Shown: positions 2 to 26,705, counted from the stretch's first letter. The stretch: 64,000 nt of DNA from Candidatus Omnitrophota bacterium (GCA_049642065.1 JBAROK010000007.1:2134-66133); one strand, 5' to 3'. Notes: generated from the sequence alone by a model not told the origin. Numbers and translations: made by a program.

Positions 2-3000
2 TCTGATTTCGATCAAAAGGTTAGGATAATTGGCGAGTGGCTGTTTCCCGCGATTAACGATGAGTTGAATAAGCTCGGCCTTGAAAATATTGAAGACGTT
101 GATGAGTTCGGTAATCAGGTAGTGAAGGAACGGCTGTTCAAGGAAAGAAAAGAGGCAGAGACCTCGGGGAGATTTAAAAGAGGCGAAGATGGGGAACTAG
201 CATTAGATGATACTTATGAGGAAGTAAAGGTTGTGAAGGAATTTTCCCAGATGCTTATGGATCTGGAAGCTGGACGGGTTACAGGCATTCAGCCGGGATA
301 CTTGATGTATATAGCCGAACTTGTCGAATATCTGGAAGGCAGCAGGCAGTTAAATTTTTATAGAAAAGGTACAATCGGTAATTTTAGGGTAGATGAATGC
401 ACGGTGCCTCTTAAGGGTGAGAACCATACTTTTTATGTGCTGAGGTTCCGAGATACCGGCAAGGTACTTTTTGGTGTAGCAGTTAAGGGTGATAAATGGA
501 TAAAGGTTAATGGTAGGGATGCAAACGTTGAGAATAAGCTCGGGAAGATCTATGAGCTCTTAAAGAGCGAGGGGTACACGCTGGTTGCTGAGTTAGCTGA
601 CTTCAAAATGGCTACAAGAGAAGAGCTCAAGAGCAGATTGGCGGAACTTACCGCACTGGCAAAAGACGAAGAAGTAGAGAAACGTTTTCCGATATACCAG
701 CTTGGCACAAAAGGAATCGAAGGTGGTTTTATACAGACACAGATCGCTTCACCGGGCAAAGTATTCGGAATAATCTCTATAGATACTCCTGGTAAGAAAG
801 ATTTACAGCAGGAATGGTCCTCAAAAATATATGTTCCGGGTAAAGGGTATATTGCTCCGGACGATACATCCAAGGCAAGCAAGGCGGCCGGTGCTATAGC
901 GGATTCAGGTGCTACTAATAATCATGCTAATATCACCTTGAGGCGTGAAGGTTTTGCCAGTGTGATAGGTATGGGGTCCCATCAGATGGTAGTGGAAGGG
1001 AACGTTATAAGGATAAAGTGTAACGTGCCGTCTACGGAAGATGTGATAAGGGGAAATGAAACTCGTACGATAAGACATTATAAGGAAGGGGAGGTCGTAC
1101 TAAGAGATGGCGACCTTGTCATGATAGATGCATCAGAAGATAGTTCTGACGGAGTCGTTGTTGCAGTGGGCAAAACGCAGTCAGAAGAGAAAGATTTTAG
1201 CGCCGAAGCGAAAGAACTTTTTGGTGTTCTCAGGGATATTGAACTGGGTGGTCCTCTCCAGGAGGGATCACAATACAGCCAGTTATATAAGCGAACTGTT
1301 GGGAGGATAACTGGTGCAGAGACGAAAATACGGGATATGCGTCTTCTGAACATGCGCAGGATCCTAAAAGACGCTTCAAGCGATAAAACTGTCAATCTCG
1401 CTAAGATGGTTGCCGAGATATTGATAGATACGAGCATGATAACCGATAGCGATAAAGCCAGAAGGACTCTGGAGACGCTCCTAAGAAGTCTTGACGATAA
1501 TGTGCGCGGTGAAGTGGAAGAGTTTATTAAGCTCCTTTTCGGTAAGAAGGTTTACCAGATAGAAAAAGAAATACATGCTGTGCTGGGGGAAGTAGGGATA
1601 AGTAATGTAAAGAAGAATCCGTCGTCCACGTTGCTGTACAGTAACACAGAACATATCCTGCTTGAGATCCGCGATCTTAACGATAAGATGGCTTTGGTAG
1701 CGGAGATGATACCGGGCGTGGATTACGATCCAGGAAAAGGTCTATTTGCTGAAGAAGCGGATATCATCAGGAAAAGGTTCAACGAGGCGCTTGAATATCT
1801 TCGCAGCAAGAAGCTGGATGAGCTGAGTGCGTATCATAGCGAGTACAGGATAGCGGAGATCGAACGTATCCTGAAAGCAGCTGATATTAATGAAGAAAAG
1901 TGGATAGAACTGAGCGATGAACTCGAGACGCTGAGGAGGACTTCAAGGGGATGGATGTTAGACAAGATCGAACGAGACCTAAGTAAGGTCAGAAGGGATA
2001 TTATAAAAGCGGAATGTCTCGGATGCGATCTTTCAAGCCCAGAGATGCTTACGCTTCAGATGGAAGTCAATCGTATGGTAGCTGTTGCTAACATCAAGAC
2101 GATGAGACAAAAAGGGCCGGGACGTTATGTTATAGACTTAAGTGAGCTGGGCAGCATATACAGGCAGGTTGCCGGGAACAAAGCTGCTGAGGTAGCTGAA
2201 GTGATGAAGATATCCGAATCTGCAGACAGCTATACTTACAGGACCGATTCCGGATTGACAGAGATAAGAAATATATTAAAAGACGGATTTGATCAAGTGC
2301 CTAGCGGGTTTGTCATAAGTTCTCTTGCTGTTTACAGCGTGATACAAGAAAACAGTGCTATTCGTCCAGATATAGAGGCGCTGATTTCCGGCAATGTGGC
2401 TCCTGAAGAAAAAATAGAGAAGTTAACGGAACTGTTGCTTGCCAAAGGAAAAATACCGGAATTTTTGAAAGAGATGATAGCGGAGAAATATAGTTCCATG
2501 GCAGGTGAAAGCAAGGAGCCTATAGTCATAACACGATCTACATCCCAGATGGAGGACCTTCTGGATGAAACAAGGCCCGGCGTTAGGAAAGCCGGTAAGT
2601 ATCTGTCCTTTGAATGCGTTAAGGGCATCGACCAGATAAAGAAGAACATATTTAAACATCTGGCACATTTCTGGGTAACAGAAGGAGATGTAAACGACCT
2701 TCATCCTATCCTAGTGCAGGAGATGCTTTTTGACCTGCATTCGTCTTTCGTGGCTAATTCAGTGGATTCTGCGGAAAAGAACTGGAACGTTGCGAACATA
2801 GATGCGGTGCTCGGATTGGGCAGGGGTGTCGTAGAAGGTGGGGAAGGTATAGCCATACATACCTTTAAGGCGGATAATGAGGGAAGGATAACGGGGCGTA
2901 TCGTGCCTCCCCATAACAGGATGTGGGCTCCCGCACCTTCCGGAATCGGTATCAAGCTGGTAGATGTGCCTGCGGAAATGAAAGCAGCTAGAGCTCTAAC

Positions 3001-6000
3001 CGAAGAACAGGTAGCGAAAATAGCAAAACTTGCACGTGCGTTCCAGAAATATTACAGGTTTCCTGTCAATATAGAGGGTGGTGTAACAAAAGACGGGAAG
3101 ATAGTTATATTCCAGGTGAGGCCTGATTCAACGCTGAAATCAAATTCATACAGCATGTCGGGGACCGGTATACACAGCCCGCCTGTAGAAAAAATTATAG
3201 CGCTCAGAAAACAGTATCTTGCCGCTGAAAATCCATCCGCGGAAGAACTGGGCAAAGTAGACCCCGCCGCTATATCGGAGCTGATAGATACCAACATAAA
3301 CGAATTATACCAAGCAAGAAAGTCCGAATCCGAAGTAAGAGACCTTGAATATAAACTGGTCGAGAGATTAGTTCAGTTTAAGGGTTACCATTATGACAGG
3401 GCCCGTGAAGTGGTAATGGACCTTAGGTTATACCACAGGCGCTCCGATGTGGTGGACAAACTGGACGAACTCTTCTTTGAGGAGCTAAAACAGATATTAA
3501 GAGAACGGCTGTTCGAAGAAGGGGAATTCAACAGGGACAGGGAAAAAATATCTTATTTTGTTGAGAATTTTCATAACTTGCAGGAGATCAGAGAGGGTAA
3601 AGATATACCGAATGGTAATCTTTTCAAGAGTAAACCGGAATACAGAGATGCGGTTATAACCTGGGAAGAGAGGATAGACCGGTACGCTTACAGGTATTTC
3701 ACCAACAAGGTAGCCTGGGATACAGCGAAAACTAACGCCGAAAAAGTCATATTTAACAATGTTCTGGTGAGGCATTTATCTGAAAAAGCGAAGGGTGAGA
3801 TGTATGCTTTTATAAGGTATCTCGTGCCCCGGCTTTACGAGAACATACCTCCTTTGAAACGGCTCAGACGCCCGACAATAGTTCTTATAGGCGGTACTAC
3901 TGCCAGCGGTAAATCCACTTCCGCCAGGTCTGTCGCTAAGAACCTGGGTATGCCGTATTATTTCTCTGCCGATCCTATAAGGGAAGTGCAAAGAAAGCTC
4001 ATACCGAAAGATACTAACCTGTCACCGGCTGACAAGCGGTCGAGTTTTCAGGAAGATCCGGCAGAAAAAGGGTTTATAGAACACGGGTCAAGCGTAATAA
4101 GGTCACTTAATGAATGTGCACGTTGGGCTGTCAATGAGAACAGGAGCATGGTAATAGAAGGTGTTCACCTTATCCCTGGACTTATAGATCCTAAACTTTT
4201 TGAAGAGGCGAACGTGGTGCAGATCATCGTGACAGTCGCCGACGAAAAAGGCCATGCCGCCAGGATAGAAAAAAGAGGTAAGGAAGAATCGGGAAGAGGT
4301 GGCGCTGGAAGATATCTTAAGGATTTCGATAAGATACGCAAAGCGAACGATCTTTTTGATGAACAGGCAAGGTCTCACGGCGTTGTAAGGGTGGATAATA
4401 GCAGCGATTTCACCCGTACTATCAGTGAAGTTCTTTTTTACGCGGCTGGTCCTTACAAAGATAAGGCGAAACAGGGACCGGATGAACGTTTACGGGCGAT
4501 GCTTGACAATAAAGTAACTAGGGAAAAAGTAAGGACTTCTTCCTCTTTAGGTAAGTATGTAAAGTCAGTGTACACGCTGGGAGAAAGCGACAAATTATAT
4601 ATCGATGCCAGTGAAATAGAGCCGGGAGTAATCGATAAGTCTGAAATAGAGGCTTTAAGGAATGCCATAGTCCAGACCACCTCAAGCGGTGCTCTGGTTA
4701 TAAGGGATTTTGACCGCCTTGTTGCCGAAGGCCGCTCTCTATTAGATTTTGCTGCCAGTATAGGTTTTGATGATGTGATCATCGGACAGGAAGCACTGTT
4801 CGCGCGTACCGCTAAAGAAGTAGAACCGATACTACAAGGGTTAACTGCGTATGCCGCTGAGCTTAACGTAAAAGTGCTTATAGAGAACCTGCCTACTACC
4901 GGTAATGCCGAGATATCCATTGGACTTAAGGACGCATACGGAAAAGGCGTACAGGATATTGATATGGAAGCGATAGTGCTTGCGGACGAAAATGGCGAAC
5001 CGGCCGGTATGATAGAAGACGGTGACGCCGTGTTCTTTGCCTGTAAACGCGGTGAGAGGGAGATACAGATCACGCTTCCCTTTGTCGCGGAAAAGATCGG
5101 CCAGAAATTCACGGACCTTGTAGTGAAAACATACGAGAAGATCAAGTTCGGGATAATGACACTTTATCACGACATGTTCGATCCGCTGCCAGTTGCGTTC
5201 AGGCCGATGAGACAAAAAGATCCGTTAGTAGACGTTTTAAGTGGCGCGGGCAAGAGATTCCTTCTTTCTGCCGAATCCGAGAAGATCAACCATATCACAT
5301 ATTTCTTCAAGGGGCAGTCAAGGGAGCCGATGGAAGGCGAAGAAATCTTCAGCGTAGATTCGCCTCCTAAAGATGAGCACCTTGACAGGCCGGAACTTTC
5401 TTTGCCCGCGCTTACTAAAGGTATTACTGAAAGGATGGAGACGGGCAATTTTGATTTCGTCGGTATAAACCTGGCTAACTGTGACGTTATCGGGCATTAT
5501 TACGATCCTACGGATGTAGAGAAGAACAAAGAAATAATCCAGATTAGACGCGAGGCGGCCGAAGCGGTTGATGAACACCTGGGGATACTGTTAGAGGCCG
5601 CAAAGAAACAGGGGTATTCTGTTATTGTTACCGCTGATCACGGCGTGGGAGAGGTAGCGGTAAAGAAAGGCAAGGGTGTCGGTAAACATACTACCAACCT
5701 GGTCCCGTTTATCGTGGTTGACCCGGACACTACAAAGGCGAGTGTTATTTCCATAGCTGAGACCGGAAGGCTTGGCGACGTGGCGCCGACGGTACTGGAT
5801 CTAATGAAGATGCAGAAACCGGAAGAAATGACGGGACAGAGCCTGCTCGTGGATTATCCTGAAAACGCTGATCCCAAAAAAGTTATGCTTATAGTGATGG
5901 ATGGTTGGGGTATAGGCGCAGAATCTGAAGATAACCCGATCCATATAGCTAATACACCTGTTCTGGACAGTCTTTACAAGGAATATTTGAACACTCGGAT

Positions 6001-9000
6001 AAAAGCGTCCCAGGAAGAGGTAGGGCTCCTTGCCGGTGACAGCGGTAATTCCGAAGCCGGTCATCTTAATCTCGGAGCGGGAAGAATAGTTTTAGGGGAC
6101 GATATAAGGATTGTCAATGCTGTTAAGGGTGAACCTATAGAAGGCGATACTACACTTGATGAGAACGCCGCGATACTTGAGACGATAGCTCATGCGAATG
6201 AACACGGTTCCAATCTTCACTTGATAGGACTCTTATCTGACGCAAGTTCGCATGGAAGGGTCGCCCATGTGCTGGAACTGCTCAAGCTTGCCAAGAGAAA
6301 AAGAGAAGAGTTCCGTGAGGAAGGTAAAGGTGACGGATTTAAAGAAGTCTTTATGCATATGATAACTGACGGCAGGAGCACCGAATCCGGTACTGCGCCG
6401 GTACTACTGCTTGATATGCAGAAACAGATGTCAAGGATAGGTCTTGGCAAGATCGTTGACTGTGTAGGCAGGAACCTTGCGCTTGACAGGGCATACAACT
6501 GGGGCAAAACGAAAAAAGCTTACCGGTTATTTGCCATGGGTGAAGGTAAACAGGTAGGTCCCGTGGGGATAGCCGAACAGCTTTTAAGAGATATACCGGA
6601 ACTTGGTGTCGCGTACAACTGGGATAACCATACCCTTAGCGGTGACCGTCCTGGTTTTGTGGGCAGTCTTGACGTAAGAGAACGGGTGGGCGCGATATTC
6701 GTCACTGATACGACCGTCAAAGACGAAGAGAAAAACATATTTGGAGCATTCGATGGCCATGGGGACATACCTTTCTTTGTCTATAGGATGCCGAAAGCAG
6801 CAAAAACACCCGAAAAGAAAAAGGAAGAAGAAACTATCTTAAGCGCTGAGACAGCTCAGGCCATTATTGATAAGTGCCAGGATAAACTTAAAGCTACGCG
6901 TAAGTCCCTTGAGGCTATACATGCGTATCAGTACCAGAGGGTAGTCAAGCTAGCGGAGGATCCAACCCTTCATTTTGATAAAGCACGAAAGAACCTTAAC
7001 GGCCTTTTTGCTGAGATCGAAAAAATATTAAACAGCCCTGACCTTGAGAGAAGGCAGAGGAAAGAAGCGATAAGGGCTCTTATGGAAGGGTTTATCGGGC
7101 TCTTCGGCTGGCAGACGATACAGTCAGTAAGGGAACATCTGGAAAGAGATGACCTGCCCGTAGACATACTTGACGGTGTCAACACTTATGAAGACCTCAA
7201 AAACGCTCTCAACGAGAACGCGAAAGTTAATATACCCGATGAGAAGATAGTCAATTACAGGTCAAAGATTACCCGAAGAAATATAGAGATGCGGGAGCTT
7301 GCTATTGAATATATCGAACTTGTTGAAGAGCAGAAGCGGCTTTATAACGAAGAACGTGAAGCGATACGGGAAGCTTACGTTGAAATTACCGGTGAAGAGC
7401 TAGTCGATGAGGAGAAGCTGCATGTCGCGGCAAGAAAAGCTTATCCGGAATATGTGCTGGACGTTCCGCATCTAAAGGATACGGATAAACCTACTTTTGT
7501 TAATGTTGCCGGAGTGATGGGGGTTAATAGCGCTGATGTGGCACATGCTATAGCCGAAAGGTCAGGTATCCCCTCTAGAATGCATTCTGGGATGCTGCGA
7601 GGAGTAATATCCGGGATATGGCCGGAAGATTTTATCAGCGCGACTGACAACTTTAATATCGGCAAAGATATAAAAGATGCGTATGTCAAAGCTTTTAATA
7701 AAGAAGCAAAGGCTGCATTAGAGGTTATCCTGACCGGTGAAGGGAATATCTCCAGAGCTGAAGCTGAAGCTATCCTGAAAAAGTTTGCCGAAAACTGGAA
7801 ACAGGCGATCCTCGAGCCGATTTACAGTGACTGGGTCAGGCTAACGAACCAGGGTACCAAACAAGCAATAAAGAGACTGCTAAAAGAAAAGTCCAGTCAG
7901 GTTTTTGTGGGAGTCTTCCCGGGTCTTCTTGATCCTGCGCATCATGAGGACGCGAATATCGTAAGCATTATAGTTAAAGTGGAAGATATCAATGAGCATT
8001 GGGACGGGTTCTTAGTTTCAGCAAAAGCCAGAGGAGTGGATAATCCATCAGACTGTATGGCGGAATTTTTCGCTAACAGAATACTCCAGGATCACCTGAC
8101 AGATTTGGGCAGGGACCTGATCCTGCCTGAAGTCCGTGAAACAGCTGTAGTTGACAGTTCTAATATGGAAAGTGCCGTCAGGAATGCTGTTAACAGGGTA
8201 ATCGATCCCATTGCAGATAGGTACGTTGAAGTGCCGAACGAAATAAAAGAAAAAGCAGAACTAGAAGAGAAAGTAGTTTTAGCCAAATATACCGAAGCAT
8301 GGGTAAAGTATTTAAAGATCCCTCAGATATCAATAGCATGGCTCTTAGGTTGGGCCGTTTTGAGATCGGTTTCTCCGGAAGCCGCGATAGCGTTCAGTAT
8401 AGCTTCGATATTTGGCGTTATATTCATGGTAATCGCCTCAAAAGACAGGTTGTTCCTGGAAAAGGCCGTGGCTAGCGCGGTTCTTGCTGTAGGGGTTTCT
8501 ACTTTCGTGCCAGGATGCTCAGAAGCGAAAAAAGACCCCAGGCCGGAACCAAGGCCGAATGCTGCGGCTGCTTCAGATGGAGACAAACCGGGCAATAAAG
8601 AATCGCAGGAGAAACCCTTCGAGATTAAGCCCGGCGAGAACATACCCGCCAGGGACAGAAATAAAGAAAAGAAGCCCAGTGAAGATACAATGAAAGCCGT
8701 AAGCGGTCTTATAGATAATGTGCTGGCACATACCGATAGGGACAGGACCGAAGATTACAGGAAGAACGCGAAGTTCCTGATGATCATGACGATGATGGTA
8801 GAAAGCGATCAGTTTGCCAGTTCCGTCCAGTACGGGGGAGGCCCCGCCAGGGGGCTGGCACAGTTCGAACCTGCGACGGCAAAATATGTGCGTGATCAGG
8901 TCAATAAACTAACGGAGAATAAAAGGTTCAAAAAAGCTCTCCAGGTCACTTTCGGCGAGAAATGGGAAGAGAAGATATTTGGCCTATCATCGGAAGAGAT

Positions 9001-12000
9001 CATCCGTAAGATGGAAGAGAAGCTTGAAGAAGTCAAAAAAGAACTGGCGGAAGCCGAAAAGAAAGAAGATCTTGAAAGAATGTTCAACAGGAAAGACGAG
9101 ATGGTGGATTTAGAAGAAGCGCTTGGGCGCCGCGGGTTAAGGACGTTCTTTATGAATTGGCGGTTCAGGATACTGATAATTAAAGCTCTCGGTGCGGACT
9201 GGGGATCTGTCAGCGCGATGAACGGTTACAGGATAGGGCAGGAACTTGCGCGTAACGATTTCTTTACTGTTATCATGACCCGCATAAATTATTTCAGGAA
9301 CCGCAATCCGATTCCGTCTCGCACGGATATTGGAGCTGTATATAGATATTATCTGGCGACATGGAGACCCGGAAAACCCGTTTCTTTCGAGAGGTTCAAG
9401 AGGCTTGTTAAGGTAGTAGAAGAGAGCGGTGTAATGAAAGAAGCGGTCATAGAAAAAACCGCAGCTAAAACATCTGATATAGCCGCGGACCAAAGAGAAG
9501 ATGCTCCTGCACGGATGGAGGCTAGACGCCGTCCTTGGATAGTTGTTCTATTCGTATTGACTGCTTTATCCGCTTTACTGTTCTGGATAACGTATAAAAA
9601 GATGTTCGAAAGTTTTCTTAAGAGCGCCAAACAGGGTACTGTCTTCAAGATGGACCTTTTCACCGATATATTCGACAGAAAAGATCTCCTGCGTAAGCTG
9701 GTAGCATCTGGTAAAGAAGTTACCGTGGGCAGGATCCCGGGTACGCATAAATATCTTTTCCGCATGGGAGACAAGAAATATACCACAACGGAGCTTGGCG
9801 AAGAGTATGCCGAGTACATCCCCGAAGGGCACGTTCATCCTGCAGAAGGCACAGCGGAGGAAAGAGCGAACGCTTTTATGCCGAGCGACCATGACCTGCT
9901 TAAATCCCATGGAAACTGGCGTTACATAGTTTCTGAGCTGGGAATCACCTGGTATGCGACTGACGGTGCCGTTATTGAGACAGCAATAGAGGATTACGCG
10001 ACGTTCTGGCATTCTGCCTGTCACAGGTCCCTCGATTCCATCAAGAAGATGATGGATGAGCGATTTGACGTAAAGATAGATTTTGATCAGATGGATCTTA
10101 GTAAAACGAAAACCCGTACGGGGAGATCTCTTTTGTTCGGGAAAACAGCACTGTCCGAAAAACCGGAACGCCCCTCAGGAGATGTGCACCCATTCAGCGC
10201 ATCAGAAGCTTATAAGGGCGTAGTTGTAGCTTTTGCTGTAAGCGTAGTCATGGCGGCAATGTTCGCATCCAAACTGGTATTCAATGGATTTGCGGGGTTT
10301 GATACTATTGCTACTATTAGTGCTATCGTCGGTATTTACTCCATTTTTACAACAGCGAGATATTATTTACTTGGTAAAGCCACGTATTATGCGCTTTTGG
10401 CGGAGGAACTTTCTCCTCGCCAGGCGCATGTCCGTGCGATAGCCACATCTGACGGCTGGCGTCATCCCGCTTTCCATAAACTTTTATCTAAGGAGAAAGA
10501 GATCATTGAAATCCATGAATCGTATAAGAACCATCTTATGGGCATGATAATGATAATGCCGGGGTTCCTGCTTGTGAATTTTCTTTTAAAGAGAGGTGTA
10601 ACTGAGATCGCGGATAGGGATGAAAACAGGGATAAGGTGGTTGAGCAGAGAGATTTCAGCAACCTCAGTGTGTATTTGAATAATCTCAGGAGCGAGAACG
10701 AACAACTGATATCTCCTGTACCTGTGATACGGGAAGTGGTAGAGGCCGGTTCAAGTCAGGTAAAGCAGCTCGAGGTGGGCAGGTCCGCGGAACTAGAGCT
10801 TAAAAAATCAAGGCAGGGACAGGCGGCAAGGGAAGAGCCTTCCCCGTCACAGAAGAAGATCGTGAGGAACTGGCGGTTCAGCGTGGAGCCGAAAGGGATT
10901 TTATACGGACAGGTAGAAGTAGAAGTGCTTGATAAGGTATCACAGGATGTTGTGAGCAAGGTGTATTTTCAGGATGCGCTGGAGATGATGAAGAATCTTG
11001 CCGGTGAAAGGCTCTTGTGGACTAATCCTACCTCAGCCGATAAGAGCAAAAACCTTCATTTTCACCTCTATAGGGAAAAAACCCCCTTGCCTGTAGAAAA
11101 TCATGAACTTGAACCATTATGCGAGGATAAAGATGGTGAAGGCGTCATATACACGGTCAAGGATTATCCGGACGAAGATCATCCCATAGCGGCTTTTGTG
11201 GTGAAGGGGACCCTTTCTCAGATCAATTTGATGAGCGCGAGGTGTTACGATATTGAAAAGATATTGCGTGCTAACGGTCAGACCGCCGATAAGCTTTTTG
11301 TGGAAGGGGAAGATGGAGAGATAAAAGTATATTTCTATCCCCGGAGAGCCGGTTACGCCAAGATATTTGATAGCGATAAAGCGCGTCGCCTGATCGGCCC
11401 GGTCTCGCTCAGCGGGTTATGGTCATTTGCTAATCAGAAGGATTATAGCCGTTTCACTAAGGAAGATCTGTATGGCGTACTGTCGAAAGTGGCGGTGCTG
11501 TACAAGAGCAGGAATTTTCAGAGGATAAGTGATGCCATAGTAAGGAATTTCCGCGAGGCGGAAGGTGCAGGCATACTCCCGCCCAGCGTTAGTTTCAGGT
11601 TATTTTCAGATTCACCTTTCGCTGAGGAAAGAAAAGAACCGGAAAACCTGGATGAAAGGATTCTTAGAAGGAAGAAAGTACTAGACGCTCTTTATGAGGA
11701 CGGAGTAAGAAGGGTCAACTTCACGTTTACTATCCCGACTGCCGGGATGGAGAGCGAAGACGAATGGATAATATTACAGCAGGCCCTAGAGCATGCCAAA
11801 TGGAAAGGCATGACTTCCGTGCTTTCAATACGCAATATAGTGCACAGGATCAGTGTTATTGAAAAGCAATGGGCACGCGTTGAGCAGTATATATTGCCAT
11901 GGGTGGATAAGATAAGTCTTAACGCTCAAGTGCAGAACGAGAACCTTGATAAGGCGTTACGTATTTTCGGACAGAATTGCAGCAATAAATCTATAGAGAT

Positions 12001-15000
12001 ATATACTTGTGTGAACGACCGGAACAAAGACAAAATTGAATCGCTTGCCAGGTTTATGCGGGAGTATATTGGTTCTTTTAATACGGTAGAGTGGGAGATA
12101 AGCAGGGAGAATATGGTCAGAGGCAATGATGCTATAAGCGAAGATGATTATGTCCAGTTGACCAGTAAGCTGAGAGAAGCGCATCCTGGATTACCGATTG
12201 ATTATGCCGTTTTAACAAGAGAAGAAACAAATCTCCATGTGTATAACGACGGTAAATTAGCTATAAAAGATGAGGGTGCCTTAAAGAATGTGGGAGACCT
12301 TTTCATCCCGGATACGCTTAAAGACAAGAGTAACCAGTCTGTTTTTCGAAGAATAACAGAGAATATCAGTGTGCAGTCTACTTACATACCGCGAAAAGAC
12401 GAAGTAACGGCCCTTCCTTCCACGTATGTGGCCAGTACCCGTGAAGAGTTTACGAAAGCGATAAATAAAATGCAGGCAAAGACACTTTTGCCTCATATAG
12501 AATGGGAAACAGAAGTTGCAGGCGCTATCGGTTATGTAATAGGAATGACAGACAAAGAGATAGAAATATTGGCTCTCGCCATACAGGCGCATCATCTCGG
12601 ACATATTCCCCGGGCAAAGAACAAAAAAGAATTCGAAAAAATGCTTGCCGTTCTTAAAAAAGCATACCCGCCGGACCATGACCTTAAAGGAGGCGAAGTA
12701 TGGCACATTAGAGACGCCATAAATAGATTGTTTGCTGCTGAGGGTGGCGAAGGTAAGACCGAACCGCAAAGATTCGATATATTTCGCGCAGAAATGGCTA
12801 GCCTTCTGGGTAAGAAGGACCTTACTAGTGACCAGAAAGCGATCGCCAGGTCGATGCTAGATTCAAAAGCGTATATGCAGGAAGTGCTGAAAGAGAACAA
12901 GATGAAGCTTCCAGCAGATTTAAGGATATTAACAGAATATTACGGCAGGCACGATAGGTATACTGAAGCTCGCTCCCGGGAAGAAGATCGGTTCAGGATG
13001 GAGCTATCCATAGACCCTGATAGAATGGCCAAACTGATAGCTATTTCCAGGATCGCTTCGACATTCGTTAACAGGATAGACGAATCGGTGCGTAGTCTGA
13101 GGGGAGAAGCGGGCGATTCTATGCCGGAAATAATAAGTTTTATAGTAGATAATCTCAAGAGAGATGGTGAAACAGGCGATAATATTCTTGAAGCTCTTGA
13201 TGGGCTTATTGCCCTTATCAGGGAACAGGATAGTACCATACTTTCAATAGCGAACCGGGCCAGAGGCGGGGATGAGGGACTGATGATTGCCAAATCAGAT
13301 AGGTCGTTCTTGAGGTTCCTTCAGAAAGGTGTTGGAAAGGTCAGAAACAAAAGACAGAATATGCGGATCATAGAATCGTTCAGACGCTATGAAAAAGGTA
13401 TTGTCGCTGAAGATTATTACCGATGGGCTATTGCAGCAGGGATCGTGAGTGGTTTTCTTGGTCTGATAAGCTTGTTTACGGGTTCGATGTGGGTAATAGG
13501 GGTTACCTGCTACAGCTTATGGGCTCTGGGGCGTTATTATTCCATAGGCAGGGATATTGAAAGAGGGACAGGTGCGGTACAACTGGATAAAGAACTCGCC
13601 AAAAAGACTCCTGTGGTCAAAATACGCCCGGATGGCTTACTTGAAAGGGATGAGAAGATATGCAAAAGTCTTCCTCCGTTTACCAACAGGATGCTTAAAA
13701 TACACGAAATTTTCGGGATGAGAATATCGGCGATGATATTCACACTTCCGATAGTAGGACGTATAATCACGAACACGTATGTCGAGATGAAACGGCTCAA
13801 CATGTGGATGGATTTCACGATACGAAAGAACCGGCCGCTTGTCACGTACGATGCTTTTAACCCAAGCCGCGTGAGGGGAAGAAGAGATCAAATGGACTTT
13901 GAAAATGGTTCGTGGAAGTGGAGAAGAGGTGACGGTCTTGCGCTTATAGCTGATATCGGGGATGACCTGAGGAGAAGGATAGAAGAAGTGCAGGAAGCGC
14001 TGAAAAAAGTAGTACCCGATGCCGAAAAACTTTTCTTAATGGAACCGGAAAGGTTGCACATAACCGTGGCAACGCTGACAAAAAACACTACCAGCGTTGA
14101 TACAAATCCAGAAAGAAGGGCAAAAAGGGAGTCCTTGATCAGGGAAACTAAGAGTCGCGTGTCTGCCTTAGGTAGTGGCGGGATAGAAGTCAGTTTTAGT
14201 CTTAATGATCTGACTATTTGGGATAATGGAGATATAGCTATACTGGGTAGGATGGAGAACCGGGGTTTAGACGAGATAAGAACCAGTTTAGACGAGTTTA
14301 ATTTAAGTGTTCATAAAAAAGATATAGTACACGTTACTGTTGGCAGGATATTTGATGAGGATATATCTGTCGATACGTTCAATGAAATAAGGGATGTATT
14401 AGAAAAGTTCCGTAACGGTAAAACCGAGGGTGATAAGAAGAAATTTTTTACGATGACTCCGGAGCTCTTTATCTGGGATCAGGCAGGGAAGACGGACGAC
14501 AAAAAGTACATACACATCCCGCGCACTAAAAAATCGGGCAGAGACAGTAAAAGACTGAGTAAGCTGGGCGAACCGAAAAGGCGCGATCTGAGTGGGGTCG
14601 CATCGAAAGAAACGAATCCTCTCATTGAGCGGCTTATTAAGGAAGGCAAGATAGTAGAGCTTTTTGAACAGAATGGCCAGCTTGACGCTTACAGGGTTAA
14701 ATGGGTTGAAGGATACCAGCCCGGCAGGGTGCAGGAAGAGGTGTTCGGTGAGGAAGTAGACGTGGATGAGATGTTCACAAGGTCGCAACAGGATAACATG
14801 CTCAGGTGGATGCGTCTGCACGGATTACCTGATAGTCGCGGCGGAGTGCATTTTAGAATAGCCCTCGATAACGCGGCTTTAGGCTGGACCGGAGACGAGG
14901 AACATTCCAACATAAGCCATGCAGGTTACCGCGACGGATGCATTTATATAGGTGAGCGTCTGCTCGCTTCCATATTTACCGACCCAGACGATCCATTAAG

Positions 15001-18000
15001 AAAACTTATACTAGATGAAGATGAGTACAATCATCTAAGAGACAGGGATTTTGATTGTCGTGCTGATAAAAGCAGATACGAAGCAAGACTGAAATCTGTT
15101 TTTAGCAGGGTAGAATCTATATTACGAGAACCTCCTAGAAAATATGATCTTTACCTGTGTACTTCGGACGAGAAAGCCGTATCCGTCTATGACGGTGAGG
15201 ACAGGGACAACCCCCAGAGCATTCATTGGGGCAATTTCATGCCAAGAGATCCTATCTATGTTGTGGGCAACATGAAGCCTGTAAAGGTTTCCGCGGGCCT
15301 TTATATAGCGAACGACTTTAACATAAGTTCTTCCAATATAAAGATGAAAGTTTGGATGGGGCCCGCTGATAACGTAAACAGGTGGAGCGAGATCAGGTTG
15401 GAACGTGTTTATACGAATGAGCTTGAGAAGGGTACAGAGTACCTGTTCGCCGGGATGTTACCCTCTTATTTTAAAGGAGACTTTACGTTCAAGTATTCAC
15501 TGGATGGCGGGAAAACCTGGAAATGGGCAAACCGAGGCGAGAATGATAACCGCAGGATAGAAAGAAAAAGGACTGATACGATAATCCATGAACCTATGGG
15601 ATACAGGGTGGACGAGAAGATAGTGACGCCTGATTACAAAAAACACAGAACGATACGCCTATACCAGGGGAACGAGGATCTCAGTGATATCGTAGACGCC
15701 GCCTCCAGCGCTGATGAATTTTTCTGGGGTAAGGGGATACATGATTCAGATAACGGCCATTCGTATTACAGGACTAACTTCGGGGCTTTAGAGTTCCGGT
15801 CCAGCGCAGAAGCAAAGATAATCCACATGGGCGATATTCTTTCTTCAGAGAACGAATACGAAGGGCAATTGCTTATATATTACGACGATATACAGAACGC
15901 TATAGTTATGAGGGTGAACAGCAATCCTGGTGAGGCGTTAGAACACGATGCTGTATCGGATCCACAGGAAAGGAAATGGAACAGGGCTGTTATAACTATA
16001 CCGTTGGACCATGAAGGCCGGGCGAAGCGGGTGGAGCACGAGCAGACGGTTATGGGCATATCGCGAGCGGGATTATCTATCCTGCTCAGGCACGCGGGAA
16101 TCAACAGGAAATTTCCAAAACTGTTCCGGCTGATCCAGCAGGAACTTGTGCTGTATCACGTGGACGATTACATGTTCTTGAAACACATGTATGGCAATGG
16201 CATGACGCCGGTTGAAGCGCTTAACACTGTGATGGATCATCCACAGAGTGTAAGTCCCGAGCAGATAAGTTATATAGAAAATATGGTCAAGTACACCAAA
16301 TCGCGTGTTCTTGGGCATCTGGCCTTACGTTGCCTCGGAAAGCTTGTTGATGAAGGGATGTACGATAGGGACGAATATCTCAAATACGCACGGTACACTT
16401 CTGAAAAAGACGTACTTGAAGGCATGGCTACAGCAGAAAGGGTCATAAGACAGGATGATTCCTTTTTGAAACAAATGGGCATTAACCCTGAAAAGGTTAA
16501 AAGCATATTTATGAGATGGTTCATTAACGGACCGAATAAAACGATCTATCGTGTTACCTGTAATATGTCAAATGGAGAGGAAAGGGTGTTCGCGATAGAG
16601 GTGAAATCTCCTCTGGGCTCAGCTCAGGGATACAGCATGCTGCAGATCGAGAACGCCATGCGCATATGGAAGAAGAAGAGCGATAAAGGATATGACTATG
16701 TGCCTCATGTTTTCGTCGTTAAGCGTGTAGACGATTACAGGCCGAAGATCCTTACAGCTCCGATAAAAGGTTTAAATATAGACAGGGAAGGCGAATTCCA
16801 TATTGAATCGCTTGATATAGAGTCTTCGAGAGTAGTGTATGATGACATTCTGGTTGTAGCGAGAGAATTCGTGGAAGGGTATCAGCTGCCGGATTACCTT
16901 GCTTACGGAACGGTTTCAGCAGAAGAGACGCGCAGGGCCACTGTAGCGGGGCTTAAGGCGTTTCTTAAATTGTGGAAGGACGGGCAGGACCCGGCTACAG
17001 GACGCGGACCTTTCCCGATGAGGCCTGCGCCGAGGGACGTTATTGTATATAAGATAGGTGAGACTTATCACGGTGTTGTCGCGGAGATGGACAGCCTCCG
17101 GGAAGGTTTTGCCATAAGGGAAGTAATAAGGGCCTTACAGTCCTGTGGATATGACAAGAAGGACGTGATATCCGCTGCCAGGGAAGTGCTTGCTGAGAAT
17201 GAGAGAGCGATTATAACGGAAAATTATGGCAAATACAAGAGTGAAAGAGTAACGGAGATGTTCTTTGCCGCGGATAAAGGTTCTGAGCTTCACGCGGTAC
17301 AAACTAAGGGTATGGATGATGAGGACGCTCATCGTATAGCTGTCAAGATAGCAAATACCGCATATGAGTTAGATGAGGATAAGAAGAGAGCATCTTTCAC
17401 GAAGATACGCGGTGCACTCAGATATTTGTCAGAAAAAGTTAACAGGAATACCAACATACCGGATGACCTCAGGAAAAAACTGAGCTGGAAAATAGATATT
17501 TTCTTGCGTCAGAATTTCTGGCAGAACGTCAAATATTATCCGGTACGCGCAGGACGCGCAGACGTGTTTGAGATGCTGGAAGGGTTCGTAACGGATGGCA
17601 CTGTATATCTAGTTGAAGGGTTTATTGATGACCGTGATCTTTCCCGGGAAGAGAATATAGCCGGTGTGATATTGTACCAGATCCTTTCCGAGTTATGCAG
17701 TGAAGAGCGGATGGAACAACTTCCCTCAAAACCGGATTACTGGGATAGCGTGAAGGGGCCTGAAGGCGTACAGAACCTTATACTCGGGGACAGAGAAGAA
17801 TTCGAGAGGAAAATCGCGAAATACGCCCGTAAAGAACACATCAGGATAGCCATGGAAGATAAGGTGCTTGGCAGGAACCTGGTCACTTATCAGGGGCTCA
17901 AGAACCTGCCTGAAGCCAGGAAAAACGCGGAAGAGTTCCTTGAGACTATCTGCAGGATCATGGAAACGGAAAAGCCTGAGATCAAGGGTGACGAAGATCT

Positions 18001-21000
18001 GGCAGAATATCTACGAAAACGTTTCGGTGTGCGCAAATTCGTCATAGGTGGCGGTAAAGGAACGCGTTTTTCTCCTGAAGGTATCATGGTGAAACAGCTG
18101 TTCAAGCCCGATAATTATAACACTAATATCAAACAGTCCAGGATATCCTCAGCCTTTGGTATGCTTGAAGATGTTATAGTCGTTGACGCTATAACAATAT
18201 TCAACCTTTTGCACCAGGATAAGGAACTTTTGGCTGAACATAAAACCACGATGTTCTTTAACGTCAGGGAGAATCTTGTCAACCTGATGGACTCCGGGTA
18301 CATCAATAGAGAGCAGTGTAAGGAATTAGTAGGGAAAATAAAGAACATAATCGACAATGAATTGGTCTATACGCACCGTTCAGACCATCTGCGAGATCTT
18401 GGTTCAGCGATGGAATCTGCGGCAAGAGCAGTTGAGGATGTTCTCGGGAAAAAGAATGAAAGGGCCCAGTTCGTTACCGATAAGATATCATATGCGGTGT
18501 TCAAGGTTATTATGGCTATTGGGGAGGAACTTATCGATGAGAATAAGAAGGACGAACTTTTCGGTAAGAATTGTATTGTAATACTAGATTCTGGAGACGG
18601 CCACGGAAGTGCCTATGTGGAAGCTCTGAGAGCCCTTAATTACAGTGGCAAGCTTGACCAAGCAAGGTATTCCGTTATAGTTCATGCCGATTCACCCGGA
18701 TGGGGTCTCGATGAATATCCAAATTACGTATTCATATCATATCTGAAGACGGTAAATACCGTTTCACCGCAAGTACAGGATATGCCCAAAGTGACAATAG
18801 CGGCTAAGAACCCTAGAGACAAACGTGCGCAAGGACGTGCCCGCATAGATACCATTACGGTTGAAAATGTTGGTGAGGTTCCCGTGGGTGTAAGGGAGTG
18901 GAACGAACTGAGCTACCAAGAGAAAAAAGAATCCAGAGAAAAAGCCAAGGCCCAGGATCCGACATGGTTCACCAACGCGAACATACTAATATGCGACACG
19001 ATGTGGGCCTACGATAAGAAAGATGTTTTAGAGAGCGAATACAGGCATGAATTGGGTCGTATGGGCAAGATGAAACGCCGTCCCGCGGAATACTGGAGCA
19101 GCGATTACCTTAATATTGCTGCCAGGGAATATCTGCAACTTATCAAGAAAGATCCTGAAACTGCACCTTTAACGCGGCTTGTATTTATCGGTCAAGACGC
19201 TCCTAATGCCAACAAGACACTTGGCCGGGCTCTTGAATACAGGGATGCCTTACAGAAAATGATCCTGAGAAAGATAAGAAGAATGGGCGTAGAAGTTGAT
19301 AAAGATACAACGGTGGCTATATCCAGTACTGATGTAGGCCCGAATTTTGATCTCGATAAGATAATAGAGGATATCTTTGGGGATAACCTTGAAGGCCCCG
19401 CTAAATTCGGTAACACGAAGCTGAGGGGCGCTATACATCTTGACGCTACGGTAGTTGTGCAAAAAGGAGCTATCCTGGACGGCAGGAAAAAAGATGTTTC
19501 TCTTACGGGAAATTGTGTAGTCGAGAGAGGTGTAGAGCTGCATGGTGTGGTCAGGGCAGATTATCTTTTTGACAAGAACGAGCTTCTGCCGACCAATAAG
19601 TTCTATATAACAGGCAGACAGTTCCGGGACAGCACTACCGAAGCGACAGTAGTAGATAACGTTGATTTCAGGGAACTTGGCCTCATAGTGGACGATCGTA
19701 CAAGGATATGGATAGCGAAAAAGGATAAAGGCGAGAGCGATCTTAGCGTACTGAAGAAAATATTCGGAAGCGATCACCCTGATAGCGGCAGGGTCACGGA
19801 CCAGATATTTGTGTACGGGGATGTTGTGCTGGACAGCACGGTCAGGGTGGAGAACGGTACGATGCTTGACGGTAGGGTTGATGAAGTGATCCTTGTCGGT
19901 GACACGCACGTGCATAAGGGAGTTAACCTCAAGAGCGTCAAAGCTAATGATACAACTTTTGCCGGCTGGAGTGATCTTGACATTTATCATTACAGGCAGC
20001 CTACTCATGACGGAAATGTAGGTATACGCAACTCGGAATTTGACAACTCTTACATAGAGATCCGCGCGGAGGTCATCAACTCGATGATACGGAATTCATA
20101 CGTAGCCAACGGAGCTATGGTAGAGGAATCCGATGTGGCTGATGAAGTTGTCGTGAACGGAGAAGAAGTACGGGACAGGCGCTTAAACAGGAAGGATGAT
20201 GCGTTATCGGTATCGGTAACCGCAGAAGAAGACGGCAAGGTCAATTACATGCCCGGAGCTTTCCGGCTAGAGGAACTTCCCAATGAAGATATAGAAGATA
20301 TACTCGGTTATCAGATCAAGTCCGCCAGAAAGCTTTATATGAAATTCATCTCGGATCCGATCCTTCTCGAACGCATGGTCCAGGAAACCGAACAGTTCAT
20401 ACGCAGCAGCGTGACACCTCGCTTTACGATACAGCAGATCCGGCAGTATCTCATAGCTAAAATAAGGGATAATTGCGACAAGGAACCGGATGTCAGCAAG
20501 TTCCGTCCGCTTGTGGAAGACCTTAGGGCACACGCTAAGCTATGGATGGCCAATGCGATTGAAATTGACATTAATGATGAAGCAGCATCAAAAGCCTTTT
20601 TCAAGGAACTGAGCATACTGGCTACACGCGCTAATTTCATAGATTTTTCAATAGATCCTAAAATGTTCGATATCGACCAATTGGTGGAGACGGATGAAGC
20701 GCAGAGGAAGAAGTTTACCGATCTTGTCGATGAGTTTGCCGATAGTGATCTGGCGATAGACGGTTACAGCGAGTTTGAAAAGATGGTGTTCAGCCCGGAA
20801 AAGGGCGTTTTCCTTTTCTTTACGGATAATATCGGTGAAACTGAGATCGATGCGGTTATGTGGGAATTCCTCGCGCGTATGGGGCATACCGTAGTTATAG
20901 CCGCAAAAGACGGTTTCTCGTATGCTGATATAGACGTTAAAGGTGTCGAAGAAACGGTGAATGCACATCCTTCGCTTTGTAAGCACAGGGATGAAGGCAG

Positions 21001-26272: not shown

Positions 26273-26361
26273 TTCGCAGGTCCCGTGGGCTGCATGATTT
26301 GCGGCTCACGAAACCTGCGGGTTATGGTTAAAGTTCTACTTGGAGGTAGGACCAGGGATAG

Positions 26362-26390
26362 CAGGGAAGCAGCAGCTTCCCTGTTATTTT
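26362..26390 (+). terminator. Rho-independent terminator of gene 1.
   Basis: Perfect 9-bp GC-rich stem CAGGGAAGC (26362-70) / GCTTCCCTG (26375-83), loop AGCA, followed by TTATTTT (26384-90). Lies ~90 nt after the TAA. Confidence 0.7.
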
Positions 26391-26432
26391 GCCCCATAAG
26401 TTAGGGTAGAAAATAGTTAGAATATAGGTTAT

Positions 26433-26460
26433 TGACATGGACGTGGGAAAGTGTTATACT
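26433..26460 (+). promoter_or_regulatory. Sigma70-type promoter P1 upstream of gene 2.
   Basis: TTGACA (26433-38), 16-nt spacer, TATACT (26455-60) with an extended -10 TG at 26452-53. Confidence 0.55.
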
Positions 26461-26610
26461 GTATCTACGGTTGAGGAATTAAAAAGCTAGGATTGGTTGG
26501 TTTTAAATGGTTGGGTTAAGAATTTGACGATGTGAGGGAGAGGTAGTAAAGGTTGGGGAAAGCAACAAAGTGAAGAAATACACTACTGGTTAAGGGTTAA
26601 AAAAGGTAGA

Positions 26611-26640
26611 ACATTCTAGTTGATAAACATGCTAGAATGT
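26611..26640 (+). promoter_or_regulatory. Candidate operator: perfect 9-bp inverted repeat overlapping promoter P2.
   Basis: ACATTCTAG (26611-19) and CTAGAATGT (26632-40) are exact reverse complements with a 12-bp spacer. The repeat spans the -35 of P2. Confidence 0.4.
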
Positions 26641-26648
26641 GGTATCAT
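26620..26648 (+). promoter_or_regulatory. Sigma70-type promoter P2 upstream of gene 2.
   Basis: TTGATA (26620-25), 17-nt spacer, TATCAT (26643-48). Overlapped by a 9-bp inverted repeat. Confidence 0.4.
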
Positions 26649-26693
26649 TTAACTATTAGACGATAAAAAAGCCAGAAGGGTATATAAATAGCG

Positions 26694-26697
26694 AGGA
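26694..26697 (+). promoter_or_regulatory. Shine-Dalgarno for gene 2.
   Basis: GAGG ~8 nt upstream of ATG 26706. Confidence 0.5.
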
Positions 26698-26705
26698 AAA
26701 CAAAT

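Follow-up and report, generated by a model that had tools for sequence, protein, structure and literature searches.

Why would a giant multi-enzyme protein carry inside it something that resembles a cell wall-cleaving enzyme, and what kind of enzyme might this be? The question is raised by the window (the whole stretch of 64,000 nucleotides analysed here), in which two adjacent ORFs encode proteins of 8.7 and 12.2 kaa with many transmembrane (TM) helices. The first, ORF1, is a gene of ~26 kb with the lysozyme-like domain in frame, and its Pfam content includes PEP-utilizers, PPDK_N, AAA_18, Metalloenzyme/iPGM_N, LigT, ARMT1-like, DUF4922, Radical_SAM and HD. ORF2 carries a divergent SecA module, which is typical of Omnitrophota giant genes. 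With its length above 5 kaa, multiple TM helices, unrelated enzyme domains, SecA-type giant neighbour and relatives in Omnitrophota MAGs, ORF1 has the features of an Omnitrophota-type giant membrane protein and probably comes from such a bacterium. The 6609-aa metagenomic protein P0180 is collinear with aa 2814-8735 at 40-50% identity. A preliminary description had placed a membrane-anchored murein lytic transglycosylase at nt 8330-9400 and considered it the clearest cell wall element of the window. The second point stands, this domain being the only cell wall-related module that Pfam finds in either of the giant ORFs. The region is real as well, although slightly short, because the domain extends to ~nt 9440 and a closing helix (aa 3157-3177) had gone unmentioned. 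The relevant features are as follows.

65..26272, + strand: ORF1, 8735 aa, giant multi-enzyme protein hosting the lysozyme-like domain (ORF list)
8318..8521, + strand: three hydrophobic segments, aa 2752-2766, 2773-2792 and 2801-2819 (Kyte-Doolittle and charge-free-stretch scans)
8522..8689, + strand: Lys/Pro/Glu-rich low-complexity linker of 56 aa (K9 P9 E8), ending in a conserved IPARDR...KKPS element
8690..9439, + strand: lysozyme-like domain of the phrog_3108 endolysin-type family, aa 2876-3125 (profile match, alignments A1/A2, hhalign, AF2)
8801..8806, + strand: Glu2913-Ser2914, predicted catalytic acid (hhalign alignment with Slt70 Glu505-Ser, precursor numbering)
8837..8872, + strand: GGPARGLAQFEP motif, aa 2925-2936, in which GLAQ is the counterpart of SLT GLMQ and Glu2935 the second family-invariant acid
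8948..9184, + strand: helical, coiled-coil-like insert of ~80 aa, aa 2962-3040, without counterpart in the phage family (window-only columns in A1)
9254..9379, + strand: C-terminal lobe motifs, namely ND (aa 3064-3065), R3073, P3084 and YYLATWRPGKP (aa 3095-3105), all invariant or nearly invariant family columns
9440..9532, + strand: charged C-terminal linker, aa 3126-3156 (translation)
9533..9595, + strand: strong closing TM helix, aa 3157-3177 (Kyte-Doolittle 2.4-2.8, biological-scale sum -2.8), followed by Lys-rich YKKMFESFLKSAK

Judged by its sequence, the domain is a member of a phage endolysin-type family, PHROG 3108. The 278-aa segment matches the phrog_3108 profile with E=1.8e-23 (84 bits) in two stretches, one N-terminal (the best, over profile positions 11-86 of 160) and one C-terminal, where the family motif was confirmed in alignment A1. 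The invariant residues defined over 123 aligned family members number ~18, and the window copy has all of them (in domain numbering E38-S39, Q47, G51, P52, A53, G55, Q58, F59, E60, D190, P209, Y221, W225, R226, P227, G228 and P230), which at an overall identity of only 20-26% argues for selection on catalysis here. With at least 1960 members, each ~160 aa long, the family bears the PHROG label "unknown function". Its member in Achromobacter phage Mano lies in a holin-holin-[phrog_3108 member]-i-spanin-o-spanin cassette and that of Pseudomonas phage YH30 directly before an Rz-like spanin, and two members are named 'Transglycosylase SLT domain-containing protein' in UniRef. The muralytic label of the family rests on such genomic positions and on annotators' names, and no biochemical assay of any member was found in the literature. 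The window copy is not a stand-alone protein of ~160 aa in a phage cassette but is internal to an 8735-aa ORF, with no holin or spanin genes near it.

The predicted active site lies in the N-terminal half of the domain, which contains VESDQF...GGPARGLAQFEP, the full stretch at aa 2912-2936 (nt 8798-8872) reading VESDQFASSVQYGGGPARGLAQFEP. Glu2913 is shared by all Omnitrophota-type copies (column E38 of alignment A4, invariant), its column is nearly invariant (≥90%) in the phage family, and both AF2 models show it closing a helix at the C-terminal end, with short beta bridges just after. In the GGPARGLAQFEP region the columns G, P, A, G, Q, F and E are invariant over the 123 sequences. When the family was compared by hhalign with E. 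coli Slt70, MltC, MltD, MltE and MltF (Prob 72.8%, P=3.2e-5, score 37.8), family E45, that is E2913-S2914 of the window, fell on Slt70 E505-S, and G2930-L-A-Q2933 on G-L-M-Q. The Omnitrophota-type copies alone gave the same register (P=0.0016), and the controls (one reversed and 15 column-shuffled) scored 7.7-15.5, with no signal. The expectation that a catalytic Glu and a GLMQ-like motif would align with bona fide SLT enzymes was thus borne out.

Does this make the domain a membrane-bound lytic transglycosylase of the canonical family 1 (GH23, Pfam SLT), which would produce 1,6-anhydroMurNAc ends? We consider this unlikely. SLT (PF01464) is the sole enzymatic Pfam family with even a weak match on the segment, sub-threshold matches recur in 22/123 family members (E<1; best E=0.00099), and SLT domains are a less common but reported component of Omnitrophota giant proteins (West-Roberts et al., 2023, bioRxiv 10.1101/2023.11.21.568195); the shared ES and GLxQ and the UniRef names above also speak for it. 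However, the segment reaches only 12.1-12.5 bits (E=0.15 and 0.11, respectively) against a gathering threshold of 21.3 bits, falling ~9 bits short, so that the SLT membership initially claimed did not pass the family search that had been named as its check. Phage_lysozyme2 matches are about as frequent (20/123). The hhalign alignment covers 35-43 N-terminal columns and then stops, with neither AYNxG (SLT motif III) nor an alignable SLT C-terminal lobe, the motifs of that lobe being others. The window's 'AMNGY' was tried as AYNxG and rejected, since it lies in the region of the lineage-specific insert and reads SMSAD, AMTDQ, AMSGQ or TMSGD in relatives. A sequence search of the PDB with the family profile came back empty, with no solved SLT structure. 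Finally, two further acids are invariant in the family, a second Glu (E2935, in QFE) and an Asp (D3065), with which a hydrolytic mechanism stays compatible; whether by transglycosylation or by hydrolysis, the predicted chemistry would be glycan cleavage. What survives of the original proposal of a murein lytic transglycosylase is a probable lysozyme-superfamily, presumably peptidoglycan-directed domain, whose real family is phrog_3108 rather than SLT.

Fold prediction points the same way. The AF2 model of family member P0004 (pLDDT 94.8) has lysozyme-superfamily enzymes as ~43 of its 50 best Foldseek matches in the PDB (TMq ≤0.50), which are statistically weak, none reaching E≤0.001. These include GH19 chitinases at the top – a further point against canonical SLT – together with phiKZ gp144, Slt/Slt70, MltE, MltF, goose lysozyme and Rpf, and matches in BFVD are tail lysozymes, lytic transglycosylases, muramidases and GH19 proteins. 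The window domain itself was modelled with a pLDDT of 74.8 overall and 57-77 around the active site. Its insert is predicted to form long helices (pLDDT ~82-94 over most of the length) and varies among relatives, being shorter in P0124 and both L008 copies, missing in P0123 and made of three tandem units in L009.

These relatives are themselves giant proteins. The module of TM segment, linker, domain and TM helix recurs in about six of them (P0123, P0124/P0180, P0126, P0128, L008 and L009), sometimes duplicated, expanded or degenerate, and phmmer links the window domain to other giant proteins with E down to 2.8e-33. Of these, P0126 and P0128 come from MAGs named Candidatus Omnitrophota, whereas the records of L008 and L009 are titled 'uncultured Planctomycetia bacterium', so that Omnitrophota is only the probable phylum of the window.

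On which side of the membrane would the domain lie? The claims of membrane helices and of a Pro/Lys-rich linker upstream were both correct. Three hydrophobic segments occupy aa 2752-2819, the first weak, the second strong and the third, rich in Ala/Val/Ser/Gly, moderate, and the last two are joined by KDRLFLEK, a short loop with positive charge; a ~40-aa hydrophobic block followed by a short K/R loop and another TM segment is the pattern common to L008 and P0128. The linker that follows (9 Lys, 9 Pro and 8 Glu) contains an IP(A/L)R(D/N)R element that L009 and the two L008 copies have kept. Beyond the domain, an equivalent of the strong helix at aa 3157-3177 is found in all the relatives listed above. 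These assignments are based on crude hydrophobicity scans. By a stricter biological-hydrophobicity sum only aa 2773-2791 passes within the upstream cluster (-1.7), which gives ORF1 eight TM helices, with the loop outside and all Pfam-identified enzyme domains inside. For the window sequence, the positive-inside rule favours neither orientation. The domain is accordingly likely to be periplasmic, as an internal loop of an inner membrane protein held at both ends. This is not the topology of a classical membrane-bound lytic transglycosylase that had been proposed, Mlt enzymes being outer membrane lipoproteins or soluble periplasmic proteins, whereas here the domain begins at aa 2876 and has no N-terminal signal peptide or lipobox Cys. 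An internal FVPGC (aa 2815-2819) was considered as a lipobox and discarded, being kept in no relative.

The same scans leave some room for a non-catalytic or cytoplasm-facing relic, with a part in structure, peptidoglycan binding or regulation, which we regard as improbable. Should the upstream cluster cross the membrane with exactly two of its three segments, the domain would be cytoplasmic and out of reach of a substrate. Likewise, in P0128 the two copies lie three helices apart, which would put them on opposite sides, at least one in the cytoplasm, if the counts are right, and the bulk of such giant proteins has been concluded to lie on the cytoplasmic face (10.64898/2026.06.07.730766). Moreover, GGPARG, QFE and WRPGKP are lost in the collinear P0124/P0180, and degeneration also affects L008 copy 1 and both copies of P0128, which suggests that catalysis is dispensable in some lineages, where a structural or binding role is possible. 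What argues against a relic in the window is the retention of the ~18 invariants despite the divergence noted above, the presence of one intact copy beside the degenerate one in L008, and the Pro/Lys-rich linkers and TM bracketing, which suit an exported loop.

We therefore favour, with moderate confidence and from the sequence, an active glycan strand-cleaving lysozyme-superfamily domain of PHROG 3108 type, incorporated as an extracytoplasmic loop in a giant multi-enzyme protein that is anchored in the inner membrane. The first ~2750 aa, with the PPDK-like, P-loop and iPGM-like modules, would stay cytoplasmic, the hydrophobic cluster at aa 2752-2819 would carry the chain across the membrane, and the Pro/Lys/Glu-rich, TonB-like linker of ~55 aa would let the domain reach the peptidoglycan layer. 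There, Glu2913, at the end of its helix beside the GGPARGLAQFE hairpin, would protonate the MurNAc-GlcNAc glycosidic bond, while the helix at aa 3157-3177 would bring the chain back to the cytoplasm and the variable helical insert might act as a spacer or regulator. The outcome could be the local opening, or holding open, of a gap in the cell's own sacculus, to accommodate either the giant protein or an envelope machine associated with it, in the manner of the lytic enzymes dedicated to secretion systems. A complete peptidoglycan synthesis pathway has been reported in Omnitrophota (10.64898/2026.06.07.730766), so that the substrate would be present in the cell's own periplasm.

The target had earlier been left between self and prey or host. 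Tethering at both ends makes action on the own sacculus most likely, and it is quite improbable that the domain is a weapon digesting the wall of host or prey bacteria during attachment. Such a role has been proposed generally for Omnitrophota giant proteins (West-Roberts et al., 2023), and it would fit the SecA module of ORF2 and an ancestry in phage lysis enzymes. Yet helices on both sides fix the domain to the producer's inner membrane, with linkers of ~30-55 aa, and the domain lacks a signal peptide, a cleavage site and any outer membrane or secretion motif; nor is a proteolytic release site evident, the lipobox-like VPGC not being conserved. Archaeal walls, besides, are not known to contain murein. 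The only cultured relative lyses precisely such prey, methanogenic archaea (10.64898/2026.06.07.730766). Finally, a chance resemblance (a short motif in a low-information giant ORF), with which the non-significant single-sequence Pfam and PDB searches would agree, is rejected as next to impossible in view of the two-stretch phrog_3108 match, the phmmer links and the negative shuffled and reversed hhalign controls.

How does this module compare with known systems? The Omnitrophota giant proteins already described (West-Roberts et al., 2023; 10.64898/2026.06.07.730766) share with the window giant ORFs, many TM helices, PPDK_N/Radical_SAM/HD and a SecA-type neighbour. The SLT domains surveyed in them are Pfam SLT; the window domain, which neither Pfam nor NCBIfam detects and which was recognised only via PHROGs, profile-profile and fold comparison, falls outside and would not be scored by such surveys, and neither work describes a TM-bracketed module with a variable helical insert. 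With GH23 family-1 enzymes (Slt70, MltC, MltD, MltE and MltF), the domain has in common the helix-end Glu-Ser, a GLMQ-type motif and, here as predictions, the lysozyme-like fold class and peptidoglycan glycan strands as substrate; it differs in its sub-threshold Pfam score, the lack of AYNxG, its own C-lobe motifs (ND, R and YYLxxWRPGKP) and the second invariant Glu.

In terms of working logic rather than sequence, the proposed parallel is with VirB1, EtgA/IagB, FlgJ and the inner membrane-anchored MltG, tethered local glycan cleavers that open the own sacculus for a large assembly, although each of these is a small protein in its own right, and MltG differs further in its YceG fold and in having only one anchor, at the N terminus. 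SAR endolysins (P1 Lyz, phage 21 R and N4 gp61) likewise hold a phage-type muralytic domain at the inner membrane, as predicted here, by a weakly hydrophobic Ala/Gly/Ser-rich helix that aa 2801-2819 resemble in composition only; they have one N-terminal anchor and are released, whereas the window has a second strong helix after the domain and no evident release mechanism. Closest of all are the PHROG 3108 phage proteins (Achromobacter phage Mano gp28, Pseudomonas phage YH30 gp57 and that of Burkholderia phage AH2, 'lysozyme' or 'endolysin' in GenBank), which match in both lobes (ES, Q, GGPARG, QFE, D, R, P, Y and WRPGKP) and in a lysozyme-like predicted fold. These are free, soluble, single-domain proteins of holin-endolysin-spanin cassettes in Proteobacteria phages, whereas the window copy, besides its low identity to them, is TM-bracketed and has the ~80-aa insert and an extra N-terminal helix. 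It is, in other words, a known kind of enzyme in unusual packaging, related most closely to small phage lysis enzymes and not to classical bacterial SLT.

The motif quoted in the preliminary description (VESDQFASSVQYGGGPARGLAQFEP) lies at aa 2912-2936, in frame upon translation within ORF1, one of the two giant ORFs that the window contains, both on the + strand. The pair correspond to two described classes of giant proteins in Omnitrophota, 'multi-enzyme' and 'SecA' (10.1101/2023.11.21.568195; 10.64898/2026.06.07.730766), and their relevant features are the following.

ORF1, 65..26272, + strand, 8735 aa; Pfam domains PEP-utilizers, PPDK_N, AAA_18, Metalloenzyme/iPGM_N, LigT, ARMT1-like, DUF4922, Radical SAM and HD
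ORF1 aa 2752-2766, 2773-2792 and 2801-2819, three hydrophobic segments upstream of the lysozyme-like domain (aa 2876-3125)
KDRLFLEK, short positively charged loop between the second and third of these segments
Linker of 56 aa after the third segment, with 9 Lys, 9 Pro and 8 Glu
ORF1 aa 3157-3177, nt 9533-9595, very hydrophobic closing TM helix, which turns the segment into a loop
ORF2, 26706..63335, + strand, 12209 aa
ORF2 aa 2718-3058, nt ~34857-35880, SecA module (divergent SecA_PP_bind and P-loop_SecA)
ORF2 nt ~36774-38070, block of about ten TM helices, after the SecA module

The TM helices, the Pro/Lys-rich linker and the motif described initially are all present and in frame (translation, hydrophobicity scans), and the closing helix, which had been missed, completes the segment; the observation is therefore confirmed, and nt 8318-9595 are the best limits for the whole unit. 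The third hydrophobic segment (nt 8465-8521, aa 2801-2819) is weakly hydrophobic and rich in Ala, Val, Ser and Gly, a SAR-anchor-like composition, and terminates in a lipobox-like VPGC that relatives do not conserve; lipoprotein processing at this site was rejected for that reason. The two ORFs are separated by 433 nt (window 26273-26705), and throughout the window (45-48% G+C) purines are in strong and uniform excess in the coding strand, with GC skew of +0.12 to +0.29 in all 2-kb bins and positive AT skew in all bins except one.

Membership of the domain in the SLT family, as first proposed, was not borne out, since its PF01464 score (12.1-12.5 bits, E=0.11-0.15) falls below the gathering score of 21.3; NCBIfam gave zero matches for the domain, and single-sequence and family-profile searches of PDB sequences gave no relevant match. 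The segment matches PHROG 3108, a family of ~160-aa phage proteins listed as 'unknown function', in two stretches (E=1.8e-23), and chance resemblance can practically be dismissed. In a large protein collection, a search retrieved seven small proteins (157-180 aa) and nothing else; these have the N-terminal motif and a C-terminal YYLATWRPGKP in common with the window segment and match PHROG 3108 with E=2e-35 to 2.4e-43. By profile search, the family comprises at least 1960 proteins, chiefly from Pseudomonas, Stutzerimonas, Azotobacter and Achromobacter genomes and from metagenomes, none of which has a precomputed Pfam domain. Across 123 aligned sequences, Q, G-P-A-x-G, Q-F-E, D, P, Y and W-R-P-G-x-P are invariant and an E-S pair is nearly so; the ORF1 copy retains all these residues, though overall identity is only 20-26% (MAFFT puts its ES pair one column off in the alignment with small family proteins, where the ungapped ES-x8-GGPARG register is that of P0005, one of the small relatives).

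Strong positional evidence that this family is muralytic comes from phages, 106 genomes of which encode a member (tblastn), since it takes the endolysin position in Gram-negative lysis cassettes. The gene order in Achromobacter phage Mano is holin, holin, family member (annotated 'endolysin'), i-spanin and o-spanin, while in Pseudomonas phage YH30 (Litunavirus) the member immediately precedes an Rz-like spanin. A literature search found no biochemically characterised member of phrog_3108.

How the domain relates to SLT enzymes was addressed by comparing profiles (hhalign) with the domains of E. coli Slt70, MltE, MltC, MltD and MltF (from NC_000913.3). The phage family aligned over 35 columns (Prob 72.8%, P=3.2e-5, score 37.8, against 8.9 for reversed and 7.7-15.5 for 15 column-shuffled controls), its ES pairing with the catalytic ES (E505 of Slt70 in precursor numbering) and its G(L/F)(A/W)Q with GLMQ, so that the expected catalytic Glu and GLMQ-like motif are both there; an independent alignment of the giant-protein copies alone gave the identical register (43 columns, P=0.0016). 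The alignment stops past the N-terminal lobe, and the AYNxG motif is absent. Because Foldseek with a model of the ORF1 copy produced only helical-bundle noise, due to an insert, a small family member (P0004) was modelled, with high confidence (AlphaFold, pLDDT 94.8, pTM 0.91); here a helix has the Glu at its C-terminal end, and short beta bridges come next in the chain. About 43 of its 50 best PDB matches, none statistically strong (TMq ≤0.50, probability ≤0.72), are lysozyme-superfamily enzymes (GH19 chitinases, phiKZ gp144, Slt/Slt70, MltE, MltF, goose lysozymes, Rpf, Pae87). The five top matches in BFVD are viral proteins without a name (148-166 aa, TMq 0.66-0.81); those ranked below are tail lysozymes, tape-measure lysozyme domains, lytic transglycosylases, muramidases and GH19 proteins.

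Profile and fold comparisons therefore point to a distinct lysozyme-superfamily family with an SLT-like catalytic lobe, and PHROG 3108, with its at least 1960 proteins, gains a reasoned assignment as a family of endolysins that have this SLT-like lobe at the N-terminus. A canonical SLT lytic transglycosylase in the strict sense is unlikely: the catalytic lobe speaks for it and the Pfam score against it, and a second invariant Glu (E2935 in QFE) together with an invariant Asp (D3065) makes hydrolysis possible beside lytic transglycosylation.

The closest relatives of the ORF1 copy, found when 1.84 billion representatives were searched exhaustively with HMMER, all lie within other very long proteins, which are P0123 (7718 aa, E=2.8e-33), P0124 (3445 aa, same cluster as P0180, 6609 aa), P0126 (2552 aa) and P0128 (4658 aa), P0126 and P0128 being named Candidatus Omnitrophota MAG proteins. 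A first scan of genome contigs with an 800-aa stretch containing the domain found no match, and a six-sequence alignment was too divergent to serve in locus search. A GTDB genome scan added two loci in records titled 'uncultured Planctomycetia bacterium', L008 (CAZNEE010000001.1) and L009 (CAZMEZ010000002.1), and a metagenome scan only L008's own contig and two small family members. Every giant relative has TM helices and a charged/Pro-rich linker before the domain, and another TM helix after it. Relative to the phage family, the ORF1 copy carries a ~80-aa insert (aa 2962-3040), predicted as long helices (pLDDT ~82-94 over most of it, 74.8 for the whole-segment AlphaFold model), which in L009 (about locus nt 10280-10920) consists of three tandem helical units of ~55 aa each and looks like a variable-length coiled-coil spacer. 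The pattern of these units is W[EQ][DE]..[AL]AMS..[DE]I...

Several copies have decayed. P0180, collinear with ORF1 aa 2814-8735 (40-50% identity), is without GGPARG, QFE and WRPGKP; both copies in P0128 (aa 1675-1935 and ~2090-2300) are degenerate; and the 5258-aa ORF of L008 has two tandem copies (locus nt ~9050-10900), the first degenerate (QLN for QFE, WDPDPP for WRPGKP) and the second intact. Since the TM-bracketed layout is kept where motifs are not, architecture is conserved and catalysis is not everywhere. It is accordingly fair to ask whether the ORF1 domain is itself a relic, non-catalytic or cytoplasmic, which we consider doubtful: its own set of family-invariant residues is complete, and its membrane context mostly points outwards. 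In L008, an ABC1/UbiB-like kinase motif (VHADVHPGNFRV) stands directly upstream of the TM cluster.

As for topology, Kyte-Doolittle and charge-free-stretch scans give three candidate helices ahead of the domain, of which the stricter Hessa biological-scale sum keeps aa 2773-2791 alone. With one or three upstream helices the domain is outside, since the N-terminal enzyme modules (PPDK_N, AAA_18, iPGM) are cytoplasmic, whereas two would put it inside. The strict set of eight helices leaves LigT, ARMT1, DUF4922, Radical SAM and HD all inside, and L008 and P0128 repeat a three-part pattern (~40-aa hydrophobic block, short K/R loop, further helix). In P0128 the two copies are separated by three helices, which sits badly with every simple topology model, and by inspection the positive-inside rule does not discriminate at the helices flanking the ORF1 domain. 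On these hydrophobicity scans, periplasmic exposure is likely. Neighbouring loops, searched to fix membrane topology, gave zero Pfam or PDB sequence matches (208-aa inter-TM segment aa 3178-3385, and aa 3509-4454). The former holds, at aa ~3245-3272 (nt ~9800-9880), EGHVHPAEGTAEERANAFMPSDHD, an unconfirmed JAB/MPN metalloprotease-like signature (HxH...S..D).

Our best explanation is that ORF1 carries an endolysin-type domain of putative lysozyme fold, probably active, predicted to be exposed as a doubly tethered periplasmic loop from which it would locally cut glycan strands of the producer's own sacculus. The preliminary description, which had left the target as self or prey, is partly supported in its interpretation: the domain is indeed the clearest wall-related element, no other wall-related Pfam domain being found in ORF1 or ORF2 (SecA_PP_bind and P-loop_SecA are the only matches in ORF2, whose other ~11,000 aa are Pfam-dark). 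A weapon directed at prey is quite improbable: West-Roberts et al. count SLT among the less frequent components and make a case for digestion of prey walls (10.1101/2023.11.21.568195), but placement between TM helices argues for the producer's own periplasm. A 2026 preprint finds peptidoglycan synthesis intact in Omnitrophota and argues that such proteins are mostly cytoplasmic and anchored in the inner membrane (10.64898/2026.06.07.730766). A conserved ~500-aa N-terminal 'head' (ORF2 aa 38-611, nt ~26817-28538), which begins with the hydrophobic stretch F[IL]K..A..V.G.FLHQQIV, is common to ORF2 and to P0123, P0128 and P0180, which bear the lysozyme-like module (23-41% identity). P0180, with its ORF2-type N-terminal start, is a mosaic in which this head is joined to the C-terminal two thirds of ORF1, suggesting that neighbouring giant genes have undergone fusion, fission or shuffling.

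Muralytic domains in giant Omnitrophota-type proteins are already known as a kind; what this case adds is the assignment to a family, the packaging between TM helices and the helical insert of variable length. These details matter because such giants are for the most part without annotation, and few recognisable domains underlie the role in wall attack proposed for them, because a wall-cleaving module can escape both Pfam and NCBIfam and be found only via a phage family of 'unknown function', and because the TM-bracketed position bears directly on the predation hypothesis. At ~270 aa, the domain fragment is small enough for expression and testing. A more speculative and rather improbable extension is that PVC/Omnitrophota giant genes captured a phage endolysin and turned it into a gated, doubly tethered periplasmic module, which, if true, would endow the cell with a switchable wall-opening device for attachment, feeding or division. 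The gate might be the release, in SAR fashion, of the upstream helix with its weak hydrophobicity or, alternatively, the coiled-coil insert of variable length, with the helices on either side linking it to the enzyme modules in the cytoplasm, which would liken it to the transmembrane control of wall cleavage by FtsEX-EnvC.
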